From contig NZ_QEII01000240.1 in NCBI RefSeq assembly GCF_003347515.1, positions 74,065 through 98,064 on the forward strand: a stretch of 24,000 bases of DNA. Reading direction: 5' to 3'. This stretch comes from Rhodoferax ferrireducens (GTDB lineage Bacteria; Pseudomonadota; Gammaproteobacteria; Burkholderiales; Burkholderiaceae_C). Positions 7,107-8,450 of this stretch are shown piece by piece (position 1 is the first letter of the stretch; each line of letters starts with the position of its first letter). The notes under the pieces are model-generated. The model had not been told where the DNA came from, did not search any database, and saw only the letters and a program-made list of their open reading frames with translations. A program made the position numbers and the translations under genes.

Positions 7107-8450
7107 TCAGTCCTTGGCGGTTCGATAAACATCGGGAACGGCCGCGCCGTTCGCCAGACCATTTGTCACGGCCCCGGTCTGGCGTTTTGCCTGGGGCTCC
7201 TGCCTGATGTAGACAGTCCCAGTAAAGCTCGACACGGGGGTCTCCTCACCGCCAGATTCCACTCGCGCAACGTCGACTCTGTACATGCCTATTCGATGAC
7301 TGCGCATGAGCTCGGTTGCCCGGGCAACAAGGTTCTCGCCAGCCCGTATCCCGACCTGAAACGTGATGTGGGCGTCGATGCCCATCGCCAATGCACCGTG
7401 TGAATTGGAGGCCAGGCCGAATGCGGTGTCTGCCAAGGAAAAAATCGCACCCCCATGACAGCCACCATTGAAGTTCATATGTCGGGCATCAACGGTCATG
7501 CGCACCACTGCACTCCCTGGCCCGCCTTCGGTCACAGAAATTCCCAACGTTGAACATATCCCATCTCGTTGTGCCAAAGACGACAGGTGCGCCAACCAAC
7601 GCTCGGCATCTGGGCTCTGGGTATCGGAGGAGCCCGACATTTGCGTGGCTTTATTGGTATTTGTCGTGAGCCGACGACCAGTACCAACTACGGCCGCATG
7701 TTCTTCAATCGCAGCAACGAGCTCGGAAACTCCCTTCGATTCCGCTCCGCTCACGACCATCACCTTGGGTATCCATGCACCGTTCGTGGCCGCTCGGCGC
7801 AGCGTCAACATCTCTCGCATGTCACGAGCCGTCTCTTCGGCCAGTGGCAGGTCGCCCTTGCTAACCGCGAGCAAATCTGCAATCTCGAGGATGCCCGCCT
7901 TGATTGCCTGCACGTCATCCCCCAGTCCCGGAGGACAAACAACTACGCGGGTGTCCGCCAGTGAGGTAATGGCGGTTTCAGACTGACCGGCACCAACGGT
8001 CTCCACGATCACTCTGTCGAATCCCGCCGCATCAAAGCAGTCGACCGCAGCACGTGCCGTACGAGACAGGCCACCCAGTTGACCACGGGCTGAAAGCGAG
8101 CGTATGAAGCAGTTCGGGTGGGCGCCATGTTCCCCCATCCGGATTCGGTCGCCCAGCACAGCGCCGCCGCTGACCGGACTCGATGGGTCGACCGCAATCA
8201 CGGCCACGCGCAACTTGCGGGCAAGCCAAATACCCATCAAGGCATTGACCAGGGTAGATTTGCCACCACCCGGCACGCCTGTGACGCCAACCACGAGCGC
8301 ACGACCGGCGTGCGAGGACAGGAGTTCAGTGACCTCCTGGCTACCTGGCGCGCCATCGTCAAGACAGGTCAACACACGCGCGATCGCCCGACGCTCACCC
8401 GACAGCACGCGGGCAAGCAGTGCCTGACGGCTTGTTTCTGACGACAGCAT
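7107..8450 (-). CDS. meaB: Fusion protein: MeaB/ArgK-type G3E GTPase (B12-mutase chaperone) N-terminal domain plus PaaI-type hotdog acyl-CoA thioesterase C-terminal domain
   Basis: ORF 7107..8504. The ATG at 8450 overlaps the mutase stop by one base (TGATG).

GTPase part (about 7689-8450): P-loop GVPGGGKS (8256-8279), DPSSPVSGGAVLGDRIRM, VETVGAGQSE and a G4-like SKGD (7851-7862).

The linker is Thr/Ser/Asn-rich (about 7605-7688).

Thioesterase part (about 7206-7604): MTVDARHMNFNGGCHGGAIFSLADTAFGLA, close to E. coli PaaI as I remember it. Confidence 0.8.
   Translation of the reverse strand: MLSSETSRQALLARVLSGERRAIARVLTCLDDGAPGSQEVTELLSSHAGRALVVGVTGVPGGGKSTLVNALMGIWLARKLRVAVIAVDPSSPVSGGAVLGDRIRMGEHGAHPNCFIRSLSARGQLGGLSRTARAAVDCFDAAGFDRVIVETVGAGQSETAITSLADTRVVVCPPGLGDDVQAIKAGILEIADLLAVSKGDLPLAEETARDMREMLTLRRAATNGAWIPKVMVVSGAESKGVSELVAAIEEHAAVVGTGRRLTTNTNKATQMSGSSDTQSPDAERWLAHLSSLAQRDGICSTLGISVTEGGPGSAVVRMTVDARHMNFNGGCHGGAIFSLADTAFGLASNSHGALAMGIDAHITFQVGIRAGENLVARATELMRSHRIGMYRVDVARVESGGEETPVSSFTGTVYIRQEPQAKRQTGAVTNGLANGAAVPDVYRTAKD

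Follow-up and report, generated by a model that had tools for sequence, protein, structure and literature searches.

A 24,000-nucleotide stretch of Rhodoferax ferrireducens DNA (contig NZ_QEII01000240.1), hereafter called the window, carries a gene whose 447-amino-acid product joins a MeaB-type GTPase to a PaaI-like hotdog domain. MeaB and MMAA are the model for how a G protein delivers and repairs the B12 cofactor of radical enzymes, and defects in MMAA cause methylmalonic aciduria. With moderate confidence, we propose that the fused protein is a MeaB-family chaperone of a two-subunit adenosylcobalamin (AdoCbl) mutase that has been joined to the product of an ancestral downstream hotdog gene. 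The hotdog domain would take the place of the C-terminal arm of MeaB and would remain an active thioesterase.

The open reading frame (ORF) lies on the minus strand, where it spans 7107..8504, and an internal ATG at 8450 gives the 447-residue protein. The initial annotation of this DNA had the coordinates 7107-8450 right, and its strand needed correction to minus; a reading from the plus strand is ruled out by a translation full of stops. Similarly, a longer form that begins with a TTG at 8504 is rejected because public gene calls and orthologues begin at the ATG. The TGA of the mutase gene (8452-8450) and the ATG of the chaperone gene (8450-8448) share one nucleotide within TGATG, exactly as initially described, and this overlap indicates that the two genes are translationally coupled.

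The two parts of the protein are separate genes in some genomes, which leaves room for the explanation that a frameshift, a mis-assembly or a read-through has joined them artificially. However, the ORF is continuous in the window. A public protein named Rhodoferax ferrireducens (P0001, 447 amino acids) is 100% identical to the fusion, and the identical 447-amino-acid gene is also called in a separate Logan assembly that occurs in three samples. Moreover, close relatives conserve the linker, which keeps the reading frame, and the fusion recurs in more than 120 protein clusters from NCBI, JGI, ENA and Logan, with isolates and a complete plasmid among the sources. An artefact is thus effectively refuted, and the minus strand does carry one genuine ORF in which both domains are intact. 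The translation also contains all of the motifs that were originally quoted for it, namely GVPGGGKST, DPSSPVSGGAVLGDR, ETVGAGQSE, SKGD and NFNGGCHGGAIFSLADTAFGLA.

The N-terminal module matches PF03308 (MeaB) over residues 24-262 with an E-value of 1e-80 and 271 bits against a cutoff of 23.1, and this match covers profile positions 2-246 of 273. The TIGR00750 model (MeaB) is also passed, with 280 bits over a cutoff of 240.75, and the stricter NF006958 gives 235 bits, which is under its cutoff of 329. Among proteins with structures in the PDB, MeaB, MMAA and Rv1496 match this part of the sequence at E-values of about 1e-49, and Foldseek comparison of an AlphaFold2 model with MeaB yields a template modelling (TM) score of 0.70. 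The positions of the P-loop, switches I to III and base-specificity loop of MeaB have been listed (PMC9974510). The switch I segment DPSSPVSGGAVLGDRIRM and the switch III region PPGLGDDVQAIKAGILE of the fusion align to these MeaB motifs and are conserved.

MeaB carries a C-terminal extension that serves as its dimerisation element (PMC9974510). The PDB alignments stop near residue 266 of the 329 residues of MeaB, the match to PaaI begins at residues 290-295 of the fusion, and only about 26 residues lie between the two matches; the C-terminal arm is therefore missing. By this alignment, a dimerisation arm of about 60 residues is absent from the window protein. The intervening residues (…GRRLTTNTNKATQMSGSSDTQSPD…) match neither MeaB nor PaaI, and the predicted local distance difference test (pLDDT) is below 50 at residues 262-279 of the AlphaFold2 model, which bears out the low-complexity linker originally reported. 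This model is based on 20 homologues, has a mean pLDDT of 75.9, and shows two folded domains. In a 20-sequence alignment of orthologues (A1), both the sequence and the length of the linker vary, the latter between about 20 and about 100 residues.

The C-terminal part is matched by the Pfam 4HBT family (PF03061) at residues 329-396 and by the hotdog model TIGR00369 (67 bits), both over their cutoffs. Among proteins of known structure, it matches the PaaI proteins of Thermus thermophilus (1J1Y, E-value 1.6e-17) and Escherichia coli (1PSU, E-value 9.5e-16), and the corresponding Foldseek TM scores of the model are 0.86 and 0.78. Residues 305-415 of the model form a β-sheet wrapped about a helix (335-351), which is the hotdog fold. 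Counting of residues in HMMER alignments places Asn326, His332 and Gly333 opposite Asn46, His52 and Gly53 of E. coli PaaI. Together with Asp61 of this enzyme and Asp48 of its T. thermophilus counterpart, these are the residues with catalytic roles in PaaI. In A1, N326, H332, G333, G334 and D341 are invariant.

The 120 best-matching protein clusters for the fusion (61-100% identity, 371-493 amino acids), drawn from NCBI, JGI, ENA and Logan, all carry both PF03308 and PF03061. They include the isolates Pseudaminobacter arsenicus and Arvimicrobium flavum, Rhodoferax, and metagenome-assembled genomes of Methylibium, Caldimonas and other Burkholderiales. A scan of GTDB genomes and a search of plasmids add at least 25 further loci (45-86% identity) in which the fused ORF runs uninterrupted, and one of these is on a complete Diaphorobacter plasmid; the taxonomic counts from GTDB are lower bounds in which close relatives are over-represented. 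The existence of orthologues that share the fusion had been set as a test of its reality, and they are plentiful. Many positions in both domains are invariant in A1, including those of the P-loop, switches I and II, S197/K198/D200 and the hotdog residues named above, and this pattern of conservation is that of two intact domains under purifying constraint.

The initial annotation was not aware of any chaperone-thioesterase fusion. Full-text literature searches indeed found no description of a MeaB-thioesterase fusion or of MeaH with a thioesterase, but the architecture is common in sequence databases and already bears a name in IMG (‘LAO/AO transport system ATPase/phenylacetic acid degradation protein PaaD’). 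The architecture is thus abundant and partly annotated although the searches found no paper on it, and it is an uncharacterised variant of a known chaperone family rather than a new kind of system.

The likely origin of the fusion is seen in Xanthobacter autotrophicus Py2, where a tblastn search of plasmids finds the same cluster on pXAUT01 (Xaut_5045-5034). Its gene order of TetR regulator (Xaut_5045), B12-binding small subunit (Xaut_5044, 67% identical to that of the window), large subunit (Xaut_5043, 65%), MeaB, hotdog, CoA ligase and Liv-type ABC transporter (Xaut_5038-5034) matches that of the window. There, however, MeaB and hotdog are two genes that overlap by 4 nucleotides. Xaut_5042, annotated as ‘LAO/AO transport system ATPase’, encodes a MeaB protein of 329 amino acids with NKAD and the arm present, and Xaut_5041, annotated as ‘phenylacetic acid degradation protein PaaD’, encodes a hotdog protein of 153 amino acids. 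Identity to the window protein is 52% for the G domain and 38% for the hotdog domain. An extra PaaK-like ligase gene (Xaut_5040) precedes that for a 659-amino-acid ligase (Xaut_5039).

There are other ARRANGEMENTS of the same parts. Two Roseobacter-group loci (L045, L049) as well as Sulfitobacter and Pseudosulfitobacter plasmids carry a full-length MeaB gene followed by a separate hotdog gene, and the hotdog gene is separate in many Burkholderiales too. At least six Burkholderiales loci (L024, L025, L027, L031, L043, L055) instead encode an arm-less MeaB fused to a nitroreductase domain (PF00881), with the hotdog gene next. Since meaB and the hotdog gene are adjacent and separate in Xanthobacter and elsewhere, the window protein is a fusion of two neighbouring genes. 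The notion that the thioesterase was recruited from another place does not hold, as it is the cluster's own neighbour gene in Xanthobacter Py2, the Roseobacter group and many Burkholderiales. A flavin reductase fused to a B12 chaperone, as in nitroreductase fusions of the P0132 and P0134 type, could be a module for cobalamin reduction or repair.

These observations can be arranged into the following proposal. The chaperone gene would have fused with a PaaI-like gene that ancestrally lay directly downstream, with loss of the stop codon and the MeaB arm and with a disordered linker left between the domains. Hotdog and nitroreductase families are known as obligate dimers. Perhaps the dimeric hotdog fold now keeps a pair of G domains together and so has taken over the role of the lost arm, and the long linker may leave these domains free to reorient on the mutase. 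We favour this substitution because the arm-less relatives examined all carry another C-terminal domain, be it hotdog, nitroreductase or XdhC. The thioesterase presumably remains active and PaaI-like, hydrolysing acyl-CoAs that the pathway cannot process. Candidate substrates are pivalyl-CoA, when the mutase is apo, inactivated or lacking active B12, and mis-activated analogues. Such hydrolysis would prevent the trapping of free CoA, and the fusion would ensure production in a 1:1 ratio and co-localisation with the mutase-chaperone complex.

Several observations weigh against this proposal. At least seven loci with a mutase of the same clade have a full-length MeaB and no hotdog gene within 10 kb (L035, L036, L044, L050, L051, L061, L064), and the unfused MeaB protein P0126 is followed by a crotonase-like gene rather than by a hotdog gene. 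These hotdog-free clusters imply that the thioesterase is dispensable for the mutase. The hotdog protein is a frequent but dispensable accessory of the mutase system, and the fusion is only one of its states. Another hotdog fusion, P0130, retains the arm and has NKAD as its G4 motif, so that the hotdog domain is not needed for dimerisation there. The initial claim that the thioesterase stands in place of the arm therefore applies to the window protein and is not universal. We regard the hotdog domain as PaaI-like and not as true PaaI because its match to TIGR02286 (PaaI; residues 301-414) reaches 92.7 bits, under the equivalog cutoff of 118.9, and because a Pfam scan finds no paa genes in the window. 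A thioesterase encoded beside CoA ligases also risks a futile cycle unless it is selective. Furthermore, the identity of Xaut_5043/5044, discussed below, with the characterised pivalyl-CoA mutase is only presumed.

One alternative, which we consider very unlikely, is that the hotdog domain is mainly structural and acts as a dimerisation scaffold or an acyl-CoA-binding module in place of the arm, and that its catalysis has been lost or does not matter. The hotdog domain is attached at precisely the point where the arm is missing, and the nearest arm-less relatives bear other C-terminal domains there. However, Asn326, His332, Gly333 and Asp341 are invariant in fused and separate versions alike, and a free-standing hotdog gene adjoins genes for arm-bearing MeaB proteins, which need no scaffold. 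The coexistence of arm and hotdog in P0130 argues in the same direction.

The G4 motif of the window protein departs from the canonical NKxD. It reads SKGD: Lys and Asp are kept, and Ser stands in for Asn. Of the 120 closest clusters, 113 have SKGD, four have SKAD and one has GKGD. In the fused forms among the loci listed, the first residue is Ser in 12, Thr in nine and Asn in five, and nearly all unfused forms have Asn. With the window included, Ser or Thr is present in 22 of 27 fused forms versus 3 of 57 unfused ones (Fisher p = 1.6e-12, a value that overstates independence because the sampled sequences are related). The altered motif initially noted is therefore real but not specific to fusions: fused forms have Ser or Thr at G4 more often than unfused ones but not exclusively, because unfused P0126, which keeps the arm, also reads SKGD. 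The motif S/T-KxD is found in bona fide GTPases. A change in nucleotide specificity through SKGD is unlikely because the Lys and the specificity-determining Asp are invariant. We expect from the sequence that specificity for GTP is kept, and guanine would still be recognised by SKGD, perhaps with altered affinity or exchange.

This enrichment could also reflect a retuned GTPase, which bears on the idea, already raised in the initial annotation, that the two domains are mechanistically coupled. The chaperone-tethered thioesterase would act on the mutase itself and hydrolyse the substrate, product or aberrant acyl-CoA that an inactivated mutase holds, which would allow damaged cobalamin to be exchanged; as a variant, occupancy of the hotdog domain by acyl-CoA would gate the GTPase cycle. 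Coupling is favoured by the strict conservation of the fusion in more than 120 clusters, by the length and flexibility of the linker, which could reach a partner, and by the tight linkage of the hotdog gene to meaB even when separate, with 4-nucleotide overlaps. Nevertheless, many clusters of the same clade lack any hotdog gene, separate-gene arrangements work untethered, neighbouring genes often fuse without a new mechanism, and the Ser at G4 also occurs in unfused P0126. We therefore judge coupling to be unlikely. A specific form of it, which we deem quite unlikely, is that the tether is functional in that the chaperone places the thioesterase at the mutase, and acyl-CoA trapped on apo or cofactor-damaged mutase is hydrolysed within a GTP-driven repair cycle. 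If this were true, a retuned S/T-KxD motif would link nucleotide state to thioester cleavage, and the protein would represent a new, ‘editing’ kind of chaperone for radical B12 enzymes.

A highly improbable alternative is that the G domain does not serve as a B12 chaperone in this protein and is part of a wider arm-less G3E subgroup devoted to other cofactors. G domains with 55-61% identity are fused to XdhC_CoxI/XdhC_C and MobA-like domains with no mutase nearby, and a rough neighbour-joining tree of G domains interleaves these XdhC/MobA-type forms with hotdog-fused, nitroreductase-fused and free forms. Because this tree has no support measure, we take it as a hint alone, in this case of repeated domain shuffling around the G domain. 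Against such a role, the fusion gene directly follows the AdoCbl mutase subunit genes and is translationally coupled in the window, and a G-protein gene does so in at least about 40 loci. In addition, the TIGR00750 score is over its cutoff and the MeaB switch III region is conserved.

The XdhC/MobA-type loci merit a comment of their own. Six loci (L028, L032, L033, L034, L037, L039; proteins P0133, P0136, P0138, P0142, P0144) carry arm-less G domains of this kind, 55-61% identical to that of the window. Their partners are XdhC_CoxI/XdhC_C, a MobA-like nucleotidyltransferase (813 amino acids), or a C-terminal region of about 350 residues without assignment. This combination suggests that MeaB-like GTPases may have been recruited to molybdenum-cofactor maturation there.

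The mutase that adjoins the fusion is encoded by separate genes for a large and a small subunit, and the features of the window are collected below. An independent gene caller starts the large subunit at 10138, which gives 562 amino acids. In the window, the order is TetR, small subunit, large subunit, fusion, 648-amino-acid ligase and Liv-type ABC importer. The whole order is also present in Pseudaminobacter, two long metagenomic contigs, L006 and Diaphorobacter. It is conserved with the ligase included in L001-L003, L006 and L085, and the ligase also matches Xaut_5039. The four-gene core of TetR, small subunit, large subunit and G protein occurs in at least about 40 loci from Beta-, Alpha- and Gammaproteobacteria and SAR324. 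Together, the genes of the cluster encode functions to import an organic acid, activate it with CoA and rearrange it.

Table 1. Features of the fusion gene and its neighbouring cluster (positions in the window; A1, 20-sequence alignment of orthologues)
Feature	Coordinates	Strand	Remarks
Whole fusion ORF	7107..8450	minus	447 aa plus TGA stop at 7107-7109; from ORF list and translation
TGATG, mutase stop and chaperone start	8448..8452	minus	Read from sequence and ORF coordinates
MeaB-type G3E GTPase module, aa 1-262	7665..8450	minus	N-terminal helical extension and G domain
P-loop GVPGGGKST, aa 58-66	8253..8279	minus	G58, G61, G63, K64, S65 invariant in A1
Switch II ETVGAGQSE, aa 150-158	7977..8003	minus	E150, T151, V152, G153, G155, Q156, S157, E158 invariant in A1
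Switch III-equivalent CPPGLGDDVQAIKAGILE, aa 172-189	7884..7937	minus	Aligns to MeaB 177-188; kept in all loci
G4 base-specificity motif SKGD, aa 197-200	7851..7862	minus	S197, K198, D200 invariant in A1
Low-complexity linker, aa 263-288	7587..7664	minus	Sits where the MeaB C-terminal dimerisation arm would be
PaaI-like hotdog thioesterase domain (predicted), aa 289-418	7197..7586	minus	PF03061, TIGR00369, TIGR02286, PDB PaaI
Asp341 codon, predicted catalytic Asp	7428..7430	minus	Corresponds to Asp61 (E. coli PaaI) and Asp48 (T. thermophilus PaaI)
C-terminal tail, aa 419-447	7110..7196	minus	Absent or different in most orthologues (A1); low pLDDT
Acyl-CoA mutase large subunit, substrate TIM barrel only	8450..10186	minus	PF01642, E 6e-157
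B12-binding small subunit	10140..10580	minus	PF02310, TIGR00640; DxHxxG as GLDGHDRG
TetR-family regulator, first gene of conserved cluster	10591..11250	minus	Pfam; position kept in at least about 40 loci
AMP-binding acyl-CoA ligase, 648 aa, directly downstream of fusion	5110..7056	minus	Pfam, NCBIfam; synteny
Liv-type ABC importer	902..5092	minus	Pfam (ATPase, binding protein); synteny with annotated loci
ABC ATPase	4310-5092	minus	Pfam
ABC permeases	3361-4290, 2273-3349	minus	Synteny
ABC binding protein	902-2263	minus	Pfam

The nearest solved structure to the large subunit is HcmA (4R3U, E-value 3e-101). Members of the clade of the window subunit share the signature RQL[IVT]GLGT, S[LP]IPCNS, VANHMF and GQH[MT]QQAG, which appears in the window as RQLVGLGT, IPCNS and GQHMQQAG. 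Thus, the canonical AFD/DFD segment is replaced by IPC, and GYHxxEAG by GQHMQQAG. In the residue numbering for the substrate sites of methylmalonyl-CoA mutase (MCM) and 2-hydroxyisobutyryl-CoA mutase (HCM), the position of Tyr89 (MCM) or Ile90 (HCM) is Leu in the window protein and that of Arg207 (MCM) or Gln208 (HCM) is Asn. An identification as HCM is rejected, although HcmA is the nearest structure, because the HCM specificity residues are not conserved (Ile90, Asp117 and Gln208 are replaced by Leu, Ile and Asn). The signature is present in all 44 listed loci whose large subunit is at least 57% identical, is absent from canonical mutases of the same sample that are at most 40% identical, and is kept from Burkholderiales to SAR324.

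Xaut_5043 shares this signature with small differences (RQL.GLGT/..PC..). A native α2β2 pivalyl-CoA/isovaleryl-CoA mutase of X. autotrophicus Py2 was reportedly described by Kitanishi, Cracan and Banerjee in J Biol Chem in 2015. Literature searches for pivalyl-CoA mutase or for the Xaut locus tags found no relevant description. The mutase clade that includes the window enzyme and Xaut_5043/5044 is probably that of pivalyl-CoA/isovaleryl-CoA mutase, judging from sequence similarity and synteny.

A PaaK-like ligase is not a constant companion of the hotdog gene. There are only four listed loci with both (Xaut_5040, which is L084 10445-11695, and L002, L003 and L006), and the 24-kb window has no PaaK-like ligase. 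This gene may encode a dedicated acid-CoA ligase in Xanthobacter and the three loci of the fused type.

The remainder of the window contains a copper membrane monooxygenase (CuMMO) operon (Pfam AmoC, AMO and Monooxygenase_B) that resembles pmoCAB (15222-18146, minus strand) and lies 4 kb from the mutase cluster. The genes that flank this operon within 12421-23269 include a pyrroloquinoline quinone (PQQ)/cytochrome c alcohol dehydrogenase, an aldehyde dehydrogenase, a glucose-methanol-choline (GMC) oxidoreductase, an acyl-CoA synthetase and OmpW. The region 12421-23269 can be read as a path from alkane through alcohol, aldehyde and acid to acyl-CoA, located beside a probable mutase of the pivalyl-CoA type, and it is conceivable that this predicted gene set serves the oxidation of branched or quaternary-carbon alkanes. 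Reportedly, Rochman et al. (2020) described CuMMOs in Betaproteobacteria that use alkanes. Directly downstream of the pmoB-like gene is a 203-amino-acid ORF (14611-15222, minus strand) with a signal-peptide-like N-terminus and no Pfam match at E ≤ 1e-4. About 1.2 kb (11250-12420) separate the TetR gene from the PQQ dehydrogenase gene. The ORFs in this stretch (11452-11799, 11663-12064 and 11805-12269) have no Pfam hits, and the stretch may hold a divergent promoter or a small gene that escaped annotation.

Current models of MeaB and MMAA invoke a dimer that is held together by the C-terminal arm and whose G domains reorient on the mutase; in IcmF, oligomerisation is the solution to this problem. 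The window protein represents a natural and widespread variant that lacks the arm and in which the G domain hangs by a floppy linker from a predicted dimeric enzyme. It offers a third architecture with which to probe what dimerisation contributes. The findings also show that, in fused or separate form, a thioesterase repeatedly accompanies one mutase clade, and they point to CoA rescue as an unappreciated need in the catabolism of sterically hindered acids such as pivalate. With regard to annotation, naming such proteins simply ‘MeaB’ hides a second predicted activity. A specialist in B12 chaperones would probably find the exchange of arm for hotdog domain and the recurrent thioesterase partner interesting, not shocking.

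Among known systems, the window protein is most directly compared with stand-alone MeaB (Methylobacterium extorquens 2QM7, 4JYB, 8DPB) and MMAA (human 2WWW, 8GJU). It shares with them the fold, the P-loop, switches I, II and III, the N-terminal helical extension and a gene position next to an AdoCbl acyl-CoA mutase. It differs in being without the C-terminal extension of about 60 residues, in having SKGD for NKxD, and in its extra C-terminal hotdog domain. The likeness to PaaI (E. coli 1PSU/2FS2, T. thermophilus 1J1Y) comprises the hotdog fold (TM score 0.86), 33-40% identity, the Asn/His-Gly/Asp constellation and, as a proposed role, the rescue of CoA from dead-end thioesters. In contrast to PaaI, the window hotdog domain lies outside a paa operon, scores under the equivalog cutoff and is fused to a GTPase. 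HcmAB/MeaH of Aquincola tertiaricarbonis is similar in that one operon encodes a split mutase, a MeaB-like chaperone for it and a dedicated CoA ligase (PMC7176365), but its active-site residues differ, its regulator is of the GntR type, and no thioesterase fusion is described for it.

The remaining two systems are fusions themselves. In IcmF (4XC6), a MeaB-like G domain is likewise covalently fused, and the arm-based dimerisation of the stand-alone form is lost (PMC10481361). There, however, the mutase polypeptide itself houses the G domain, between its B12 domain and its substrate domain, whereas in the window the mutase subunits have separate genes and the partner is a thioesterase. The IcmF equivalog model scores 126-184 bits against a cutoff of 1500, and with three separate ORFs the architecture is not that of IcmF. 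The MeaB-nitroreductase fusions (P0132, P0134; L024, L027, L031, L043) share the mutase clade and an arm-less G-domain subgroup that is 55-60% identical, and a hotdog protein is encoded next. They differ from the window protein in their nitroreductase partner, in keeping the hotdog protein separate, and in a G4 motif that reads NK[AG]D or NRGD.

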